Below the pieces are notes generated by a model, which worked only from the letters and a program-made list of their open reading frames with translations, ran no database searches and was not told the DNA's origin. The translations under genes were made by a program, and so were the position numbers. A DNA stretch of 34,880 bases from a virus, in the IMG/VR virus record IMGVR_UViG_3300002859_000001, positions 1 to 34,880 of that record; one strand, 5' to 3'. Each line of letters starts with the position of its first letter. Positions within the stretch are counted from its first letter, which is position 1. Shown here in pieces: positions 2,278-34,880 of the stretch.

Positions 2278-3984
2278 TTAGGCGAACCTGATCGTCGACT
2301 GGATAACTTCGATTGTCTGGGTTCCCTTTGTAAGCGTGAAGCGGTACGCCAGGCCGTTAGTCGTTGCGACGGTTGTGTTCGTGAATGTGTGAACGTACAG
2401 GTTGACCTTCGACGTGATGTCTTCCCACACCGGCGAAGCGTCGAAAGGATTGTTCGTGACTTCGCAATGAAGAACACTATCCACGGGACGATCCGAAGGG
2501 TATAGAGAAACAAAGCATTTCGTGACCTTTTCATCAGTAGAAAAAGCGCGGGAAGCGGCTAACCTTGTGACCGTTCGACTGAAAGTGATCACGCGCTGGG
2601 CCGTTCCTCCGGCGCCGTCGCTGACACTGATCGTCAAAGTATGCGATCCGGCCAGAAGGCGAAGCCACAAAGAAGTCAAGTCAGCCGTGTTCGTCGCTCC
2701 GCTTGTTGCGGTGTAGGTGCGAAGGGTAATTGTTTCAGCCCCATTCGTCACCGTTTCAGTGACAGTCAATGTCTGACTGGCCGATTCCGCGTCGGTCACG
2801 GTGTAGTTGTAGGTCAAAGGTGTCGTTTTTGCGCCCACGTTCTGATCTGAACCGCTGATCACCGGATTCGTATTGTATGAAATAGGCGTGGCCGTTCCTG
2901 TCTGGTATGCTGATTCAGCGCCCAGGGAATCGACCGCCTTCACGCGGACCTGATAATTCGTTCCGGACGTCGGGACGGTGTCTGTGATCGAAGTCGAAGA
3001 CGTGATCCCGATCTGGACATAAGCCCCGGAATCGACGCGACGTTCGAAGACATAATTTATCGGATTGCCTTCCGGATCGGTTGACCCTCCGGTGGTAATA
3101 GTTAAAGATTGACCAGCGCGTGGGGTTCCGTGAGAAATAGAAGACGGGGTTGTTGGCGGCTGGTTCCACTGGATTATATAAGCGCCGTCGGTATCCACAG
3201 AATCAGATACCAAGATTCCAGAACCCACTTCCAAAGCCGGCCGAACGCCATAGTTGCCATTGTACGCGTAGTTGCTGCTGAGACTGCCGTCCGTGCTGAC
3301 AAACCGCGCATAGTACGAATAGCCGGCGTACGGGGTCCTTAACCACCAGTACCAGTATTGCGTTGACGAAAGACTGGCGTTTGTGTATTCGGACGCGCTG
3401 ACAGCTTCGGCCGTTGGATAACATTGTCTTCGGCTTGCGCTGTTGAAATAGTCCCACAGCGTACCTTCTGCGACGCTGTTTTCGTTCGCCAGCCCGACTT
3501 CTGTGTTTGAAAGAAGATAAATCTTTCGGACTATGTCTTCATACCCGCCGCCGTCGGTGACGGTATTCTTTGCGACCCTGATCGTACTGTCAAGGATTGC
3601 ATTCCTGAAACTTTCTTCGAAGAATGTTAGGAAGCCGGCCTGGGCGTCGTATTCGTTGTAGTTGGAATAAACATTCGCATTATTGGGCGGCGCGTCGTAA
3701 GCGTGGCGCGCGCTGTACCAGGCCCCAGCGCCGGCCGCGCTATTTAGCCATTGATCAATATTTGACTGACTGTAACGGTTATTTCCGTAGCTTTTTCTGT
3801 TGCTGTCTGGATTGCTGGCTTCAATCGCGTCGAAACATTTCAGGGTGATCATTCTTTCGGCGACCAGCTTCGTTCTTCCGGAAGCCTGGTGTCCGACAAT
3901 AAATCGAATGACGCTATTGTTGTACTTCGTGTTTACTGACTTCACGACTGATCCAACGGGTAACGTCGATATTAACTTTGCCAT
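2278..3984 (-). CDS. DGR target 1: tail-fibre/receptor-binding-like protein with an N-terminal variable ligand-binding domain (WWLR...GVRPA) followed by FN3/Ig-like repeats
   Basis: 568 aa. Residues 217-252 are encoded by the repeat that matches the RT-adjacent template. Downstream T/S-rich beta-type repeats (e.g. YVFERRVDSGAYVQIG...YQVRVKAVDSLGAES) look FN3-like. GGAGGG RBS. Confidence 0.8.
   Translation of the reverse strand: MAKLISTLPVGSVVKSVNTKYNNSVIRFIVGHQASGRTKLVAERMITLKCFDAIEASNPDSNRKSYGNNRYSQSNIDQWLNSAAGAGAWYSARHAYDAPPNNANVYSNYNEYDAQAGFLTFFEESFRNAILDSTIRVAKNTVTDGGGYEDIVRKIYLLSNTEVGLANENSVAEGTLWDYFNSASRRQCYPTAEAVSASEYTNASLSSTQYWYWWLRTPYAGYSYYARFVSTDGSLSSNYAYNGNYGVRPALEVGSGILVSDSVDTDGAYIIQWNQPPTTPSSISHGTPRAGQSLTITTGGSTDPEGNPINYVFERRVDSGAYVQIGITSSTSITDTVPTSGTNYQVRVKAVDSLGAESAYQTGTATPISYNTNPVISGSDQNVGAKTTPLTYNYTVTDAESASQTLTVTETVTNGAETITLRTYTATSGATNTADLTSLWLRLLAGSHTLTISVSDGAGGTAQRVITFSRTVTRLAASRAFSTDEKVTKCFVSLYPSDRPVDSVLHCEVTNNPFDASPVWEDITSKVNLYVHTFTNTTVATTNGLAYRFTLTKGTQTIEVIQSTIRFA
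3231..3336 (-). repeat. DGR variable repeat 1 (VR1)
   Basis: 106 nt aligning without gaps to 5196-5301, with 14 mismatches. Every mismatch has a coding-strand adenine on one of the two sides. Confidence 0.8.
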
Positions 3985-5044
3985 GATAGCCCTCCAATTC
4001 TTTAGAAAATAGACAGTAGAACAATTCGTCCGTCTGTCTGATTAGGTGGTGACTGTTGCCGTGTTCAGCATGGCCCGTCCAGCTTGCGTATGAAGCCAGG
4101 ATCGTTTCAAAGTCGACCCGGCCTTCGTCAAGCAATCCACGGAATTTTTTCAACTTCCGGCGGATTCGGTTCTTGCTATCACGGCGGATTTTCTGAACGA
4201 CCTTTCCGGTGTCCGTCATGAAGGTCCTGAATCCCAGAAAGTCGATTCCTTGTTTCAGTGGGAAGATCGCCGTCTTTTGATTCAGTTCCAGGCCCAGGTC
4301 TTCGACATACCGGCGAATTTCTTCCAGGCAATATCGAAGATGATCCTTGTCGTTGTGGATCAGATAAAAGTCGTCCATGTACCGGCCATAAAACTTGATT
4401 CCCAGGCGTTCCTTGATAAAGTGATCCATTCCAGAAAGATAGAGGACCGCGAACCATTGGCTGGTATGATTGCCGATCGGGATTCCTTTTCCTTCGGTGG
4501 AATCAATTATCATGTCAAGAAGCCACAGAACGTCGGGATCGTGAATGGTCCGACGAAGCTGTGACTTCAAAACGCCATGATCTATACTGTAAAAATATTT
4601 TCTTATGTCACATTTCAAGACCCAGCCGTCCGCCCCGAATTGCCGGTGATATTTCCGCATGAACATTTTCAGGCGGTCAAGGCCGAAATGTGTTCCCTTT
4701 CCCTTCTGGCTTGCGTAGTTGTCATAGATGAATGTCTTTTGAAGGCGTGGTTCCAGGACATTGTCGCAAAGGCTGTGCTGGACGATCTTGTCGCGAAACG
4801 AATTATACATGATCAATCTTTCCTTCGGTTCGTACACCATAAAACAGTTGTACGGGCTAAGTCGGTATTTCTTCGACGTCAGCATGTAGTGAAGGAAGGT
4901 CAGGTTTTCAAGTGCGTTGATCTCATATTTCACGACTGCATACTTCCAGCGTTTACCCTTCCGGGCTTCCATGTACGCCGTATAAAGATTATTCAGGTCT
5001 GCCAATTTTGCGAAGTCAGAAGTCGGGACCTGTTCTTCGCTCAA
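3914..5044 (-). CDS. DGR-type reverse transcriptase
   Basis: 376 aa with YMDD (GRYMDDF) and the DGR-typical motif-4 signature IGNHTSQ. Sits directly downstream of the template-like repeat and an Avd-like gene. Confidence 0.85.
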   Translation of the reverse strand: MSEEQVPTSDFAKLADLNNLYTAYMEARKGKRWKYAVVKYEINALENLTFLHYMLTSKKYRLSPYNCFMVYEPKERLIMYNSFRDKIVQHSLCDNVLEPRLQKTFIYDNYASQKGKGTHFGLDRLKMFMRKYHRQFGADGWVLKCDIRKYFYSIDHGVLKSQLRRTIHDPDVLWLLDMIIDSTEGKGIPIGNHTSQWFAVLYLSGMDHFIKERLGIKFYGRYMDDFYLIHNDKDHLRYCLEEIRRYVEDLGLELNQKTAIFPLKQGIDFLGFRTFMTDTGKVVQKIRRDSKNRIRRKLKKFRGLLDEGRVDFETILASYASWTGHAEHGNSHHLIRQTDELFYCLFSKELEGYHGKVNIDVTRWISREVSKHEVQQ

Positions 5045-5195
5045 AATAAAATCCTCCTTGCCGCTTATAGTCTGGGCGCCGTAGCCGAAGCCCTCGCGTC
5101 AGCAATCTTGTGTTTACCCTTGCGGGAAGGATATGCCCTCCTTTGTTGGGGTTCTCTGCTTTCAGGTTCTTCGCCTTACTCGGTCACGCTTTCCA
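5045..5195 (-). other. Non-coding spacer between template repeat and RT, presumed part of the DGR RNA
   Basis: About 150 nt with no credible ORF in the transcription direction, lying between the TR end and the RT start. In the Bordetella phage DGR this region is needed for cDNA priming. Confidence 0.4.
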
Positions 5196-5301
5196 CCAAA
5201 TCCGGCCGAACGCCATTGTAGCCACCGTACGCGTAGCTGCTGCCGAGACTGCCGTCCGAGTAGACAATCCGCGCATAGTTCGAAGTGCCGGCGTACGGGG
5301 T
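5196..5301 (-). repeat. DGR template-repeat-like copy (TR) in non-coding DNA between avd and RT
   Basis: Position is canonical for a TR. Homology to VR1 and VR2 starts at accccg and ends just after ggcgttcggccgg. The only ORFs over it are out-of-frame or antisense artefacts. Confidence 0.75.
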
Positions 5302-5327: not shown

Positions 5328-5783
5328 TCAGGCCTGGGGTTCGTCCTGGCTGGCCGGCGGTTTCTGGCCGTCTTCCAGTTCCGACTTGTACCAGGCGGCG
5401 GACATATACTTGACGTCAAGGGTTTTCTTCGTCCAATATTCGAAGGTCCCAGCGTCTATATAACCGCGCTTTTTCGAAAGTTCGACATAGAAAAGCAATA
5501 GCTTACAGTCTGTCAGCGCGGCCCGTTGTAGTTCTAATCTTTTGGCCTTGTCTGATTCGTTCCGGATCGGGAATATTTCATTCGCTTCCAGTAGATTTTC
5601 ATAAATCGAAAGGACGCGTTCCTGGATTCGGTTGACGATCGTGAACCTGATCTTCTTCGGGAAGTGTTTCGCGTTGTCCGTCAGATTCAGCGTGTAGTCA
5701 ATTAAATCAGCGACCACCGGAAGAACGTGAAGGGGACTATCGTTCCCAGGCTTCTTCCGTTGAAAATTCTTTCGTGTTCCCAT
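5328..5783 (-). CDS. avd: Accessory variability determinant (Avd-like four-helix-bundle protein)
   Basis: 151 aa, basic, helical. Pattern HFPKKIRFTIVNRIQERVLSIYENLLEAN ... LQRAALTDCKLLLFYVELS ... matches the Avd / 23S-rRNA-IVS protein family as I remember it. Immediately upstream of TR and RT. Confidence 0.7.
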   Translation of the reverse strand: MGTRKNFQRKKPGNDSPLHVLPVVADLIDYTLNLTDNAKHFPKKIRFTIVNRIQERVLSIYENLLEANEIFPIRNESDKAKRLELQRAALTDCKLLLFYVELSKKRGYIDAGTFEYWTKKTLDVKYMSAAWYKSELEDGQKPPASQDEPQA

Positions 5784-26286: not shown

Positions 26287-26554
26287 CTTCCTGGGCGGCC
26301 CTGGCGGCCATGATTTCCATTGACCGAAGGAACGTGTATTCAGAAAAAGCTAACTGTCCGATCATTTCTTCGGTTAGGATGACAAGGTATTCGTCGCCGT
26401 AACCGTCTTCGCCGTATGTACGACCGGCGCGCTCGTTGATGAATTCCAGCTTTCGCCTTGCGTATCTCTCGGCCTTTTCAAAGAAGGCGGGGCATATTTC
26501 AGCCCCGATCCTTTCTTCGACGGCCGCCTTTAAGTTAAAAGTCGTCGTCTTCAT
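26270..26554 (-). CDS. Hypothetical protein (start at MKTTTFNL; longer ORF-track version overlaps target 2)
   Basis: 94 aa. The ATG at 26554 overlaps the end of the upstream gene by 20 nt. Confidence 0.4.
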   Translation of the reverse strand: MKTTTFNLKAAVEERIGAEICPAFFEKAERYARRKLEFINERAGRTYGEDGYGDEYLVILTEEMIGQLAFSEYTFLRSMEIMAARAAQEGGADE

Positions 26555-27209
26555 CTTCGTCGCCCTCCGTGCCTGAAAGCGCTTCGTTCCGATCTGTGCG
26601 CCTGAATAGTTCTTCGACAGAATCAGAAAGATTGACTTCGTCTTCTTCCAGGACAATTTCGATTCCAGATTCCAGCCGGAAAGCCGGCCGAACGCCATAG
26701 TAGCCATCGTACGCGCCGTGGTAGTAGAGGCTGCCGTCCGTGTAGACAAGCCGCGCGTCGTACGAATAGCCGGCGCGCGGGGTTATCAGCCACCACCAGT
26801 CGTCAAGTTCAAGAAGGTCCTGTTCGGCGTACTTTTCAAATTGCTTCTGGGATAGAAGACCGATCTTGTCCTGGCTTGTCCCATATCCGGCGCCGCCCTG
26901 GTGATCCGAAAGGTCCCATTCAGTGGAAACGATCCTGTCTGTGTTGATCTTTCCGGCCGCCCTCAATGCCGACATGAAGTTTTCGTTCAGGTCTTTTCGA
27001 ATTGTGCTGTTTCGCCAGTCGTTCAGATTAAAACCTTCCGGGCGCTCGTATAAAAGCGGGAACAGGTTGAAAGGTCTGTCGCCGATTGATTCGGCCGTGA
27101 TAACAAGTGTCGTCCCGTCTGTGAAGTGTTCCAATATCCGAAGTGTAGCCGGTCCCGCGTTAAACTCTGACCCGATAGCCAGGTCCTTAATTTTTGTTTT
27201 TACTGCCAT
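26535..27209 (-). CDS. DGR target 2 candidate: stand-alone WWL..GVRPA variable-domain protein with acidic tail (alternative start 27227)
   Basis: AGGAGG sits 8 nt before ATG 27209. Same domain type as the N-terminus of target 1 (NDWRNSTIRKDLNENF ... DWWWLITPRAGYSY...GVRPAF). No signal peptide or TM. Ends EGDEDEDDDF. Confidence 0.7.
   Translation of the reverse strand: MAVKTKIKDLAIGSEFNAGPATLRILEHFTDGTTLVITAESIGDRPFNLFPLLYERPEGFNLNDWRNSTIRKDLNENFMSALRAAGKINTDRIVSTEWDLSDHQGGAGYGTSQDKIGLLSQKQFEKYAEQDLLELDDWWWLITPRAGYSYDARLVYTDGSLYYHGAYDGYYGVRPAFRLESGIEIVLEEDEVNLSDSVEELFRRTDRNEALSGTEGDEDEDDDF
26680..26783 (-). repeat. Third copy of the DGR repeat (VR2)
   Basis: Aligns without gaps to TR 5196-5301 with 22 mismatches: 9 have the A in TR, 6 have the A in VR2, and 7 have no A on either side. 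Confidence 0.6.
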
Positions 27210-27615
27210 TTTGTTTTCCTCCTTCATAATCTTCGATCACGACTTCGACGCGTGGGTTTTTCGGGTCCACAGCGAAGGAATCGGTGAAATATTCAATATG
27301 CTTCCAGCCGTCATTTTGTAGGACGCCCATGTGGACAAGGCTGTCCTGGACGAACTTCTTCGCAAACGCGATATTGTCTTTGTCGCGTCGCCTGTTCGGT
27401 TCAACCCATGTGTAATGGATAACGACCGGACCTGAAAACGTGACGCCGCGAAGCTGTGTTTTTATCATGTAGCCGATAACGTGTTCGGCCTGTTTCTTCA
27501 TAGACGCCGCCTTGTATTTGCCTTTTTTGCCGCGTTCTGCGTCTATGTACTCATTCAGTCCGGGCAATAGGCCCGGAACAGTGAATTTACAGCGCAAGAC
27601 TTCACTTCCTTTCAT
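27187..27615 (-). CDS. rusA: RusA-like Holliday junction resolvase
   Basis: 142 aa. RRRDKDNIAFAKKFVQDSLVHMGVLQNDGW matches the RusA D..N...K...D pattern. Confidence 0.75.
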   Translation of the reverse strand: MKGSEVLRCKFTVPGLLPGLNEYIDAERGKKGKYKAASMKKQAEHVIGYMIKTQLRGVTFSGPVVIHYTWVEPNRRRDKDNIAFAKKFVQDSLVHMGVLQNDGWKHIEYFTDSFAVDPKNPRVEVVIEDYEGGKQNGSKNKN

Positions 27616-29264: not shown

Positions 29265-30038
29265 TCACGCTTTCTTCTGGCACGAACGACACAGTTCGCG
29301 CCCGAACTTCTTCATGGAATAACCCTGTTCAGCTTCTGAAATAGGTCCGCCGCATTCAGGACACACAGCGCCACCGCTGGACGCGCCCTGTTTGGCTGTG
29401 TGCGCCGTTTGGCTTGTTGCCTGGGTGTTTGTATTGCCAGACCCGTTTCGCGCTCCTGTGGTCGATTTTGGCGGTCCTTCTGACTTGCCTGTCATATTGA
29501 AGCGGACTGTCCCCGAACGATCCATAATGACCAGTTCGGATATTTCACGCCTGTCGTTGTATCCGATATGTGACACTTCGAACCTGGTGTTCGGATAACA
29601 CCTGTAAATGTCTTTCGCTCCTTGCTTTTCGCTGTAATACTCCGAATCACCAAGTTCGACATAGATGAAGGGTCCGGTGTATAGTTCGCGGCCGATTCCG
29701 ACGTTGAATCCGGCGCGCTTGAATGCGTCCGAAGCCTGTCCTTTTTCCTTTTCGGTGTTGCTCTCGACGCCAACGTCCTGTTTTCTGACCCAGGTTTTCT
29801 TTTCTTCGTCCCACACGTCAATATTGCAGAACAGATTGCCGTTGATTACTTCGTGGGTCCTTTGCCAGTTGCCAGGGCCGAAGACCTGGTCAAGAATTCG
29901 CATATCGACACGGGCGTCTTTGTAGATCAGAAGGACGGCGCCGACACGGCCAGATTTGTTCTTGCTGACACTTTGAACGCGACACTCAACGTCCTGGGCT
30001 GTCAGTAATGGAATTTCAAACTGTTTCATTTCCGGCAT
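29265..30038 (-). CDS. Rad52/Sak-family single-strand annealing protein with C-terminal zinc ribbon (ORF track start 30059)
   Basis: QASDAFKRAGFNVGIGRELY is the conserved Rad52-fold motif. C-terminal CPECG...CRSC. Confidence 0.75.
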   Translation of the reverse strand: MPEMKQFEIPLLTAQDVECRVQSVSKNKSGRVGAVLLIYKDARVDMRILDQVFGPGNWQRTHEVINGNLFCNIDVWDEEKKTWVRKQDVGVESNTEKEKGQASDAFKRAGFNVGIGRELYTGPFIYVELGDSEYYSEKQGAKDIYRCYPNTRFEVSHIGYNDRREISELVIMDRSGTVRFNMTGKSEGPPKSTTGARNGSGNTNTQATSQTAHTAKQGASSGGAVCPECGGPISEAEQGYSMKKFGRELCRSCQKKA

Positions 30039-30900
30039 TTTCCGCCGACCTCCTTTCAAGGTAGTAATTGCAGAATTCGCAAGCGGAACAATAATCAGCG
30101 CATTTCTTGTCTTCGCCTGGGCGGACCTGAATTTCGTCGCCGCTGTTGTCCGATTTCCACTTTTCAGCTTCTTCCATGCTATCCAGTACGCGAAGGGCTG
30201 TCTTGCGGCCTTTCTTCATGACTGCGAATTTGTCGCCGCTGTTGAAGCGTTCTTCCGGCGTACAGATCGGAAGGTCTTCGTCGGCCAGCTTTTCAGCTTC
30301 TGCGACCTCTGCGAATCTTGCTGTCAGCCATTCTTCGCATTCAACGAAGTCGGCTTCTGTGAATTTGAATTTCACGGTATGGACCGGAAATTTCGGATAG
30401 TCAGCTTTGATCTTTGCGTCGCGCTTGCTATGGTCTTTCAGGAATGCGACGATCTCGCCACCCTGGGCGTCGAATCCAATCTTTCGAAGCATATAGCAAT
30501 AGATCAGCGTCTGGCGTCGCCAGTCTTCAAAGTCCCCGAAGATGATCTTCCAGACAGAAGCGGTCTTATAATCTGTAACAATTTTCGTTTCGTCTGAATA
30601 AAGATCGAATTGTCCGGACAGAATATAATTACAGAAGGGAACCTTGATTCGTTCTTCCTTTAATTCGTGGCCGGCTTCCTGGTGCTTTTCAAGGATACCG
30701 TGAACGGCCGTCCCAAACAGAAGCCAGACCATGTCCGAAACGTCGCGTTCGATCTCTTTGTCGTGGCGGCGTTCCAGGATCGTTTCCCTGACACCTTTCA
30801 AAAGAGAAGTCACGCGGTATTCGTTCGGTTCGAATACATAGTCGCGCTGGGCCAGGCTGACAAAAGGGGAAGGAAGGTTCATATTGTTGGTAATGATCAT
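30016..30900 (-). CDS. PD-(D/E)XK (Cas4/RecB-like) exonuclease with C-terminal Cys cluster
   Basis: GQFDLY...IVTDYKT core motifs plus C..YC..C..C at the C-terminus. Paired with the annealase. Confidence 0.75.
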   Translation of the reverse strand: MIITNNMNLPSPFVSLAQRDYVFEPNEYRVTSLLKGVRETILERRHDKEIERDVSDMVWLLFGTAVHGILEKHQEAGHELKEERIKVPFCNYILSGQFDLYSDETKIVTDYKTASVWKIIFGDFEDWRRQTLIYCYMLRKIGFDAQGGEIVAFLKDHSKRDAKIKADYPKFPVHTVKFKFTEADFVECEEWLTARFAEVAEAEKLADEDLPICTPEERFNSGDKFAVMKKGRKTALRVLDSMEEAEKWKSDNSGDEIQVRPGEDKKCADYCSACEFCNYYLERRSAENAGNETV

Positions 30901-33377: not shown

Positions 33378-34880
33378 ACGCGGTTATATATGCCAGGTAT
33401 TCGCCAGGCGGCGATCAGACGGAACAGTCTATCGAAGGCCAGCTTCGGGAATGCCGCGAATTTGCTGACAGGTATGAAATAACGATCGTTGGCGTTTATA
33501 GCGACCATGCAATGACGGGAAAGAACGACCGCCGGCCGGATTTTCTTCGTATGATCGCGGACAGCGAAAGCGGGAAGTTTGAAGCGGTGATCGTCTGGAA
33601 GCTGGACCGTTTCGCCCGTAACAGATACGACAGCGCGATATATAAGGCGAAGCTGAAAAAGAATGGCGTCAAGGTCATTTCAGCCAAAGAGAATATAACG
33701 GACAGCCCGGAAGGGATTATCCTTGAAGCAATGCTGGAAGGCATGGCCGAATATTATTCTGCTAACCTGGCCCAGAACATAAAGCGCGGCATGAAAGAAA
33801 GCGCCCTGAAATGCCAGGTCACGGGCGGAAATATCGCGGCCGGTTATAAGATAGGGCCGAACAAAGAATTCTTGATTGATCCGCCTCAGGCCGCAATCGT
33901 GAAAGAAATATTCGAAAGGTATGACAGCGGCGAAACAGTCACCCAGATCATAACGGCCTTGAATGGTCGTGGCCTGAAAACTTCACGCGGAAAAGCCTTC
34001 GGACACAATAGCCTTCATACAATTTTGAAGAACGAAAAATATATCGGTGTTTATAAATGGAATGACGTCGTAATCGAAGACGGCGTTCCTTCAATTATAG
34101 ATCGCGACCTATTTGACCGGGTTCAGGAAAAAATGACACTGAATAAACGGGCGCCGGCCAGGGCTTCGGGGAAGGTGGACTATTTGTTATCGACGAAGTT
34201 GTTTTGTGGTAAGTGCGGGACGAATATGAATGGCGAAAGCGGCACAAGCAAGACAAAAGGCCGCAAGCATTATTATTATAAATGCGCGTCAGCGAAGCGA
34301 AGGAAGGGCTGTGACAAGAAGCCTGTGAAGAAGGACTGGATCGAAAAACTGGTTGTCACGGAAACAGTCCGTCGCGTCCTGGTTGACCAGGTGATCGAAG
34401 CGATCGCCGACAAGGTGATTGAACTTCAAGGCCGCGAACGTGACAGAAGCATTCTTCGCGCTCTTGAAATGGAACTGGAAGGCGTCAAGAAGTCTATTGC
34501 GAATCTGGTCAAGGCTGTCGAAGCCGGTATCTTTTCAGAATCGACACAGGCCCGTCTGTCTGAACTTGAAAAAGAAAAGAAGGACCTTGAAGGGCGTGTT
34601 GTCCAGGAAGAAATTATCACGCCGAAGGTGACAAAGAACCAGGTGATCTTCTGGCTGGAACAATTCAAAAACGGGGACGTGAACGATCCTTCATATCAGA
34701 AGAAGATCATTGACGTATTCGTCCAGGCCGTTTTTGTTTATGATGATCATATAACGATAACTTATAATTACATTGATGAAAGCGGACGACCGCGAACGGT
34801 ACAGGTTGAAAAAGGCGACTTTCCGACCGATCCGACGAAGTGCGACGTGGGTTCGACTTTGACGTCTTCCCCTCCACCAA
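33374..34880 (+). CDS. int: Large serine recombinase (integrase), open at the window end
   Basis: AVIYARYSPGGDQTEQSIEGQ ... VIVWKLDRFARN resolvase catalytic domain, a recombinase domain, a CGKCG...YYYKC zinc-beta-ribbon and a coiled coil. No stop before 34880. ATGA overlap with the upstream gene. Confidence 0.9.
   Translation, partial: MNAVIYARYSPGGDQTEQSIEGQLRECREFADRYEITIVGVYSDHAMTGKNDRRPDFLRMIADSESGKFEAVIVWKLDRFARNRYDSAIYKAKLKKNGVKVISAKENITDSPEGIILEAMLEGMAEYYSANLAQNIKRGMKESALKCQVTGGNIAAGYKIGPNKEFLIDPPQAAIVKEIFERYDSGETVTQIITALNGRGLKTSRGKAFGHNSLHTILKNEKYIGVYKWNDVVIEDGVPSIIDRDLFDRVQEKMTLNKRAPARASGKVDYLLSTKLFCGKCGTNMNGESGTSKTKGRKHYYYKCASAKRRKGCDKKPVKKDWIEKLVVTETVRRVLVDQVIEAIADKVIELQGRERDRSILRALEMELEGVKKSIANLVKAVEAGIFSESTQARLSELEKEKKDLEGRVVQEEIITPKVTKNQVIFWLEQFKNGDVNDPSYQKKIIDVFVQAVFVYDDHITITYNYIDESGRPRTVQVEKGDFPTDPTKCDVGSTLTSSPPP
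34845..34880. repeat. 36-bp direct terminal repeat, copy 2
   Basis: Identical to 1-36 and lies inside the integrase reading frame. Confidence 0.95.

Follow-up and report, generated by a model that had tools for sequence, protein, structure and literature searches.

The virus genome recorded in IMG/VR as IMGVR_UViG_3300002859_000001 (34,880 nt, called the window here at its full length) carries a diversity-generating retroelement (DGR), the repeats of which raise the question of whether the template of such an element can itself be rewritten. The reverse transcriptase (RT) of a DGR would copy the RNA of a template repeat (TR) with random bases opposite A, and the cDNA would normally replace the variable repeats (VRs) alone. 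In the DGR of the Bordetella phage BPP-1 the flow of information is described as unidirectional and the TR DNA as unaltered (PMC5703328; PMC10907252). In the window, the differences between the TR and VR1 run in both directions. The repeats and the 3' core that they have in common are as follows.

5196..5301, minus strand: TR, adenine-eroded, with 18 A and two in-frame AAY codons and with TR-type flanks on both sides
5202..5214, minus strand: GC-rich 3' core of the TR, GGCGTTCGGCCGG (columns 88-100), common to the VRs and near-invariant in TR and VR copies
3231..3336, minus strand: VR1, within the open reading frame of target gene 1, from the repeat alignment
26678..26783, minus strand: VR2, the third repeat copy, from the repeat alignment

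Adenine-linked changes in the template repeat

When the repeats are compared exactly and without gaps on the coding (minus) strand (TR 5301-5196, VR1 3336-3231, VR2 26783-26678), the TR and VR1 differ at 14 of 106 positions, spread over 11 codons, and each of the 14 mismatches has an A on exactly one side. The A is in the TR at six of these (columns 16, 22, 34, 41, 85, and 101) and in VR1 at eight (columns 17, 40, 43, 58, 65, 76, 77, and 82), which agrees with the preliminary description of this DNA, as do the adenine counts of 18 for the TR and 20 for VR1; VR2 has 15. The eight with A in VR1 only run the wrong way for the present TR, and the mismatches are not, therefore, confined to template adenines. 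The window and its closest IMG/VR relative (L036) have 139 ordinary differences outside the repeats, of which 45% involve A on either side; against this, 14 out of 14 has a p of ~1e-5. One of the six mismatches with A in the TR is of another kind: at column 101 all the TRs examined have A and all the VRs C, the latter including 77 out of 77 VR copies for which the 3' end and flank were tabulated. This is a fixed TR/VR difference and is ruled out as a product of mutagenesis, so that the earlier figure of six TR-A to VR-N mismatches is right as a count, although not all six are due to mutagenesis. There is no fourth, adenine-richer copy of the repeat in the window, which has these three copies only and is circular and complete.

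Three pattern scans, of IMG/VR, metagenome contigs, and GTDB genomes, yielded 109 related TR copies in true TR context. Of these, 83 show no adenine loss relative to the family majority, typically with 31-33 A and 12-13 AAY codons, and depletion to the degree of the window TR is found in only two others. The AAC/AAT-rich version of the RT-adjacent copy that had been envisaged does, therefore, exist. More than 100 relatives have such an AAC/AAT-rich TR at the same RT-adjacent site and between the same flanks. No relatives share the window TR with VRs that differ only at its adenines.

The exact Avd (accessory variability determinant) protein of the window is found on two contigs, L199 (Logan SRR35939759) and L200 (ENA ERZ27315071). 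Between the window and these, 3 of 482 nt differ upstream of the TR and none of ~125 nt downstream, but 15 of 106 differ inside the TR (Fisher tests: TR against flanks, p = 9e-11; A against non-A sites, p = 5e-8). Further members of the 90% Avd cluster all have intact TRs, and the cluster relatives differ from the window by 1-3% in the spacer and RT against 12-14% in the TR. The TR of L204 and L206 is that of L199 and L200 except for T at column 27, and this allele has 32 A and 13 in-frame AAY codons. The window TR has 14 differences from it, all of them A-to-N (7 T, 6 G, and 1 C), while the flanks differ by 0.5-2%. Because the intact allele differs by A-to-N changes only, between flanks that are nearly identical, it is the window TR itself that has been A-mutagenised, and this hypermutation is A-specific, local, and recurs in the family. 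The suggestion that the RT-adjacent copy had been overwritten is thus borne out. The multi-base spectrum (T, G, and C) is typical of DGR RTs, and deamination does not fit.

Against L036, 13 of the 15 differences in the TR are A-to-N and the other two are shared with the window VRs. Had the cDNA been long, A changes might extend upstream of the TR, but no such pattern is seen, the three differences in avd being A-to-C, T-to-C, and G-to-A. A comparison of each TR with its nearest neighbour is biased by its tie rule and was used only for flank-identity figures. Exact-protein look-ups of the RT, of its 252-aa and 176-aa neighbours, and of a 44-aa open reading frame across the TR found none in other assemblies; only Avd and the members of its cluster yielded related contigs. 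Among GenBank phages the closest matches are just 67-72% identical and are uninformative.

The same allele gives an order to the events. VR1 differs from the intact L204/L206-type TR only at template adenines (12 out of 12 sites, including the fixed column 101), and VR2 has 17 A-site differences with two others inside the repeat (C at columns 27 and 54). As both differ from the intact allele almost wholly at adenines, both descend from an A-rich template. At the eight wrong-way mismatches the A has since gone from the TR, and both VRs are older than the most recent overwrite of the TR. In the case of VR2, the A at columns 59 and 62 and the C at column 27 indicate that it was written from an un-eroded template. 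The TR and VR1 are both mutated at six sites (columns 7, 25, 35, 59, 62, and 67) and carry the same base at all six, which is why every mismatch between them has an A on one side. Against unrelated family VRs the window TR has the same base at 57.5% of co-mutated sites, and an all-same match is seen in none of the 56 family VRs with at least six co-mutated sites (p ~0.04). T at column 27 was at one time taken as a further derived marker common to the TR and VR1; this was withdrawn, since L204 and L206 show it to be an ordinary TR polymorphism.

From these shared bases, the TR and VR1 may share an eroded intermediate, and the copies are probably not fully independent derivatives. The earlier description of the three copies as independently A-mutagenised derivatives of an AAY-rich ancestor would then hold for the A-rich ancestor, although not for the independence. 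The intact TR would have given an intermediate with 6 changes; from this VR1 would have been written with 5 more, and the present TR would have arisen with 8 more, at adenines only at each step. This two-step history is likely but unproven, and a single overwrite at 45% of the adenines, together with coincidence, is possible. The six states shared by the TR and VR1 encode Tyr, Tyr, Ile, Ser, Ser, and Tyr, residues that are common in family VRs. Of the changes found only in the TR, some would place Thr at codon 6, a residue seen there in none of 71 VRs, or Ser at codon 15, seen in one of the 71; given the near-absence of these residues from VRs, the TR-only changes look unselected.

Two other TRs of the family are independent repeats of this erosion. 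The first is in an isolate genome, Senimuribacter sp. DSM 106208 (L178), where the TR has 18 A losses and no non-A changes between flanks that are 141/142 and 172/172 identical to those of an intact relative; its VR keeps A at 12 sites where its own TR is without A. The second, on a human gut contig (L102), is without 14 adenines of the family majority, and 12 of these are losses even when its own parent TR type is the reference, again with no non-A changes. The RT lies downstream of this TR, and the contig runs from a Nextera adapter remnant through the TR-type flank into the eroded TR. Heavy erosion of the template is thus seen in ~3% of family TRs. Smaller erosions are present in L067 (6, clustered at the 3' end), L126 (3), L113 (2), and L147 (1), and all TR erosion is inside columns 7-86, the same span as VR variation in the family. 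There are also single TR changes in the Logan contigs L209 (A22T) and L210 (A67T), with two AAC-to-TAC changes in the L006 clade. In these three cases the VRs of the same element carry the same T as the TR, and Tyr is the commonest VR residue at these codons; the AAC-to-TAC changes would fit the 'locking in' of a favoured residue.

Possible routes of overwriting and alternative explanations

The window is probably best explained by an otherwise intact phage DGR in which the TR DNA received adenine-mutagenised cDNA of the element itself, once or, more likely, twice. The agent would be the DGR's own cDNA, replacing the TR between columns 7 and 82 and turning 14 of ~31 template adenines into T, G, or C. 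VR2 would have been written before any overwriting of the TR and VR1 before the last. Being older than the last overwrite, the VRs would have kept A where the present TR is without it, and this would therefore give mismatches that are A-linked but run in both directions. The RT and Avd are intact and the template alone is eroded. The earlier thought that the element is caught in decay holds only in part, for the template (18 A, 2 AAY) and not for the RT and Avd.

Two routes of entry may be proposed. In the first, the TR would occasionally serve as a target of canonical homing. Its GC-rich core is also that of the VRs, and the six bases that follow differ at one. A few TR and VR copies have T93C or T92C in GGCGTTCGGCCGG, and no A-linked change is found 3' of column 86 in any VR or eroded TR examined; GGCGTTCGGCCGG is the 3' limit of information transfer. 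A GC-rich 3' element resembling the initiation of mutagenic homing (IMH) site is present, common to TR and VR, with the flanks diverging ~5 nt later. In BPP-1, according to what is reported of Doulatov et al. 2004, a TR in which IMH* is replaced by IMH becomes a recipient of adenine mutagenesis. Unlike this engineered swap, the window TR keeps its own 3' end, with the TR-specific A at column 101 (window 5201), and a TR-type flank identical to that of intact relatives.

In the second, the cDNA would anneal to its own, fully homologous template DNA at the replication fork, possibly assisted by the Erf-like annealing protein of the phage. Such a putative single-strand annealing protein (SSAP), Erf-like by PHROG, is present alongside the DGR and adjoins a PD-(D/E)XK exonuclease. 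In a DGR reconstituted in E. coli, retrohoming varies with the direction of replication, and ExoI inhibits it. DGRec combines the BPP-1 DGR with CspRecT recombineering in E. coli; there, A-mutagenised cDNA is written back into the template locus, and with an annealing protein provided this is as frequent as writing into the target (10.1101/2025.03.24.644984). The window phage resembles DGRec in its putative Erf-like annealing protein and exonuclease. However, DGRec is an engineered system that requires over-expression of an SSAP and the disabling of mismatch repair, whereas the event in the window would be natural and rare, and may have come by one of the routes proposed here.

Several points weigh against overwriting by the element's own cDNA. 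Intact relatives probably encode the same annealing protein, which cannot then explain why the lineage of the window was hit and can be at most a permissive factor. The eroded TR of the window rests on a single assembly; exact IMG/VR searches with it and with the inferred intermediate gave no matches, nor was it found among called genes. The two-step history rests on a p of ~0.04 and needs two rare events in one lineage. Eroded TRs also resemble real VRs in the base at each site, which could mean that VR-derived information, and not raw cDNA, was transferred.

Such a transfer would be VR-to-TR gene conversion, in which a VR allele from the same or a co-infecting genome forms a heteroduplex with the TR and patchy mismatch repair copies VR states into it. 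The VR-like base choice (0.575 for the window against a null of 0.38-0.41, p ~0.004; p 0.01-0.04 for L178), the identity of the TR and VR1 at six out of six co-mutated sites, and a related contig (L136) that resembles a VR1-by-TR recombinant junction are all in keeping with this. However, upstream homology ends 6 nt before the first changed column and just 18 shared nt follow downstream, edges that are too short for ordinary recombination. Eight derived TR states are missing from VR1, the TR equals VR2 at only 4 of 8 co-mutated sites and lacks both of its non-A markers (C at columns 27 and 54), two TR-only codons are almost never seen in VRs, and in L178 just one of the six sites mutated in both TR and VR has the same base. 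The RT context bias reported in the DGRec work (10.1101/2025.03.24.644984) would explain the same VR-like base choice, and gene conversion is considered unlikely. Slow decay, in which point mutations at template adenines are fixed singly by selection and lock in favoured residues, is predicted for stable environments; a theory preprint predicts adenine loss (10.64898/2026.02.18.706561), and the single AAC-to-TAC changes in L209, L210, and the L006 clade, where the VRs have the same base, are of the kind expected. It would be surprising as the cause here, given that 106 nt hold 14 changes where the adjacent flanks diverge by 0.5%, and that there is no non-A change in the window TR, L178, or L102. 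In addition, eight of the changes are not present in any VR yet and could not, therefore, have been selected, and some would give residues that are avoided in VRs.

The source is a metagenome assembly, and related contigs break at polymorphic VRs (L036, L040, and L046), so that reads of VR variants from a polymorphic population might have been threaded between TR flanks in the library or assembly. L136 may itself be chimeric, and the L178 contig begins only 142 nt upstream of its TR. Yet flank-specific bases stand no more than 7 nt (5') and 19 nt (3') from mutated columns, giving junction k-mers that are impossible from an intact TR or a VR: by sequence logic, k-mers of at least 21 joining the TR 5' flank to 7T/17C, or 82T to A101, can arise only from molecules that combine TR flanks with a mutated interior, and no stretch shared with VRs reaches 21 nt. 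An isolate genome (L178) shows the pattern too, and in L102 adapter-anchored sequence runs via the TR flank into the eroded TR. A chimera is accordingly regarded as very improbable. That the VRs carry adenines which the local copy cannot have supplied would also follow if the RT-adjacent copy were not the working template and an adenine-rich master lay elsewhere, as was suggested earlier. For the phage itself this is rejected, since the genome is closed (36-nt terminal overlap) with three copies only and relatives keep an intact TR at exactly the same position with the same flanks; a master copy anywhere else is scarcely credible.

The DGR locus and its phage

The window is a closed circular genome of ~34.84 kb (34,844 bp), its ends (1-36 and 34845-34880) being identical with an exact overlap of 36 nt. 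It is the genome of a contractile-tailed gut phage, with the DGR cassette placed after the baseplate genes; other genes are for portal, terminase, sheath, tape-measure, endolysin, repressor-like, replication, and recombination functions. The relatives are hosted by gut Clostridia, in genomes and metagenome-assembled genomes that include Senimuribacter, Lawsonibacter, Ruminococcus, and Ruminococcaceae. The DGR is on the minus strand in the order avd, TR, spacer, RT, and target 1 with VR1, with target 2 and its VR2 remote.

5328..5783, minus strand: avd, 151 aa, its position and sequence kept upstream of the TR in more than 20 relatives
5045..5195, minus strand: TR-RT spacer, the 3' part of the DGR RNA, highly conserved, its sequenced ~125 nt part identical to L200
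3914..5044, minus strand: DGR RT, 376 aa, TTG start (Pfam RVT_1, E = 2e-18)
2278..3984, minus strand: target gene 1, 568 aa, DUF6273 and an Ig-like domain, downstream of the baseplate genes
26535..27227, minus strand: target gene 2, 230 aa, DUF6273 by Pfam, remote from the cassette
29265..30059, minus strand: putative Erf-like SSAP (PHROG phrog_1097, E = 1.9e-24)
30016..30900, minus strand: PD-(D/E)XK exonuclease, partner of the annealing protein (PHROG exonuclease, E = 5e-71; Pfam PDDEXK_1)

The Avd protein has a weak match to Pfam bAvd (21.7 bits against a cut-off of 40 bits) and a weak match to 23S_rRNA_IVP, also below the curated cut-off. The spacer has 2-3 differences in 151 nt from the other relatives. 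The RT, the start codon of which is preceded by an AAGGAGG ribosome-binding site, is intact in translation with YMDD and IGNHTSQ (I/LGxxxSQ) motifs; it is 99.7% identical in amino acids to the L036 RT and 78-99.7% identical to the RTs of more than 20 relatives that bear TR and VR. The DUF6273 matches of the two targets have E = 4e-39 and 1e-13, and the SSAP has no Pfam match. VR1 occupies approximately residues 217-251 of target 1, with ~315 residues, including the Ig-like domain, coming after it, as against the C-terminal VR of most DGR targets.

The element is like the BPP-1 DGR in having avd, TR, RT, variable repeats of the C-terminal type, AAY-rich family templates, and A-to-N substitutions, and in having a GC-rich 3' element with a fixed TR/VR difference just downstream. 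It is unlike BPP-1 in that its TR carries 14 A-to-N changes, the template not being invariant, and in that VR1 is mid-frame and a conserved TGGAATCTGG(G)AATC-like motif is seen where a GC-rich hairpin might be expected. No conserved hairpin of this kind, which might have accounted for the choice of target, was found after the VRs, DNA folds of the flanks giving only weak structures, and an Rfam search of the window gave no matches. The motif lies 4-9 nt after all family VRs (window 3190-3230 and 26640-26677) and could be protein-coding conservation or a target-recognition element.

Some related contigs have features of their own. Contig L067 (VOFK01003531.1) has two DGR cassettes in tandem. 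In the first, the matches to RT and Avd are distributed over several frames and erosion of the TR is limited to its 3' part; in the second, the RT is only ~36% identical to that of the window. L036, L040, and L046 are one 34.5-kb IMG/VR contig (3300034683) with the VR2 locus at both ends and different VR2 sequences there; this contig apparently broke in assembly at a polymorphic, actively diversifying VR2. L136 (OKZN01010658.1, 1114 nt) has the 5' flank of a target gene, then a repeat that is VR-like in its 5' third and TR-like in the remainder (one AAC missing), a TR-type spacer, and the start of an RT; the alternatives are recombination between VR1 and TR (circle or tandem duplication) and chimeric assembly. 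Four fermentation-metagenome contigs (L109, L070, L083, and L120) contain large clustered regularly interspaced short palindromic repeat (CRISPR) arrays of 66-171 units with a repeat of about GTTTCAATTCCTCATAGGTAAGATAAAATC. In all four, a 37-nt spacer, CGGCGTTCGGCCGGATTTGGTGGAAATCGTGACCGAG, matches the 3' end of the DGR family TR and the start of the TR-RT spacer, and in L109 it is present twice consecutively.

Implications for DGR templates

The element belongs to a known DGR family, and the new part would be natural self-overwriting of the template. No description of this was found in the literature searched, most subscription journals being outside its scope, and self-mutagenesis is described there only for engineered systems. 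Differences between TR and VR that are 'non-A-to-N' have been surveyed in 23% of DGRs, with up to 11 in one target, and misincorporation by the RT or mutations of unrelated origin were given as the cause (Wu et al. 2018; PMC5758913). The mismatches in the window are like these in that canonical TR-to-VR mutagenesis cannot make them, but unlike them in that relatives show the template to have changed; part of such survey mismatches would be accounted for if templates are overwritten in this way. A preprint by Amoroso et al. 2026 describes progressive loss of TR adenines until the DGR becomes inoperant, and assumes slow spontaneous point mutation (10.64898/2026.02.18.706561). Unlike this model, the present data show bursts of 8-18 A-specific changes.

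In the textbook view the TR is a protected master copy from which information flows to the VR only. The window phage would be a natural exception, with two further elements of its family alike and one of these in a cultured isolate. The evidence leans, by a modest margin, towards DGR templates not being immutable in nature, with mutagenic cDNA of the element itself occasionally reaching the TR and changing 8-18 adenines in a burst. As it can be cultured, the DSM 106208 strain would allow self-mutagenesis of the TR to be measured directly.

If this is general, the order in which events took place could be read from wrong-direction TR/VR mismatches, DGR-finding pipelines that accept A-only mismatches alone would overlook these loci or give them the wrong orientation, and evolutionary models with slow point mutation of the TR would need a much faster term. 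For the window phage, the repertoire of proteins that can be reached falls from ~10^18.3 variants with the intact TR to ~10^10.2 with the present one. The next homing event would place the TR-only states on the VRs, including residues that family VRs almost never carry, and for this reason the lineage may represent a dead end and not an adaptation. In the general case, self-erosion would be built into DGRs as a fast ratchet that turns diversifying codons into fixed ones, through which a DGR could age or could lock favoured receptor-binding residues into its template.

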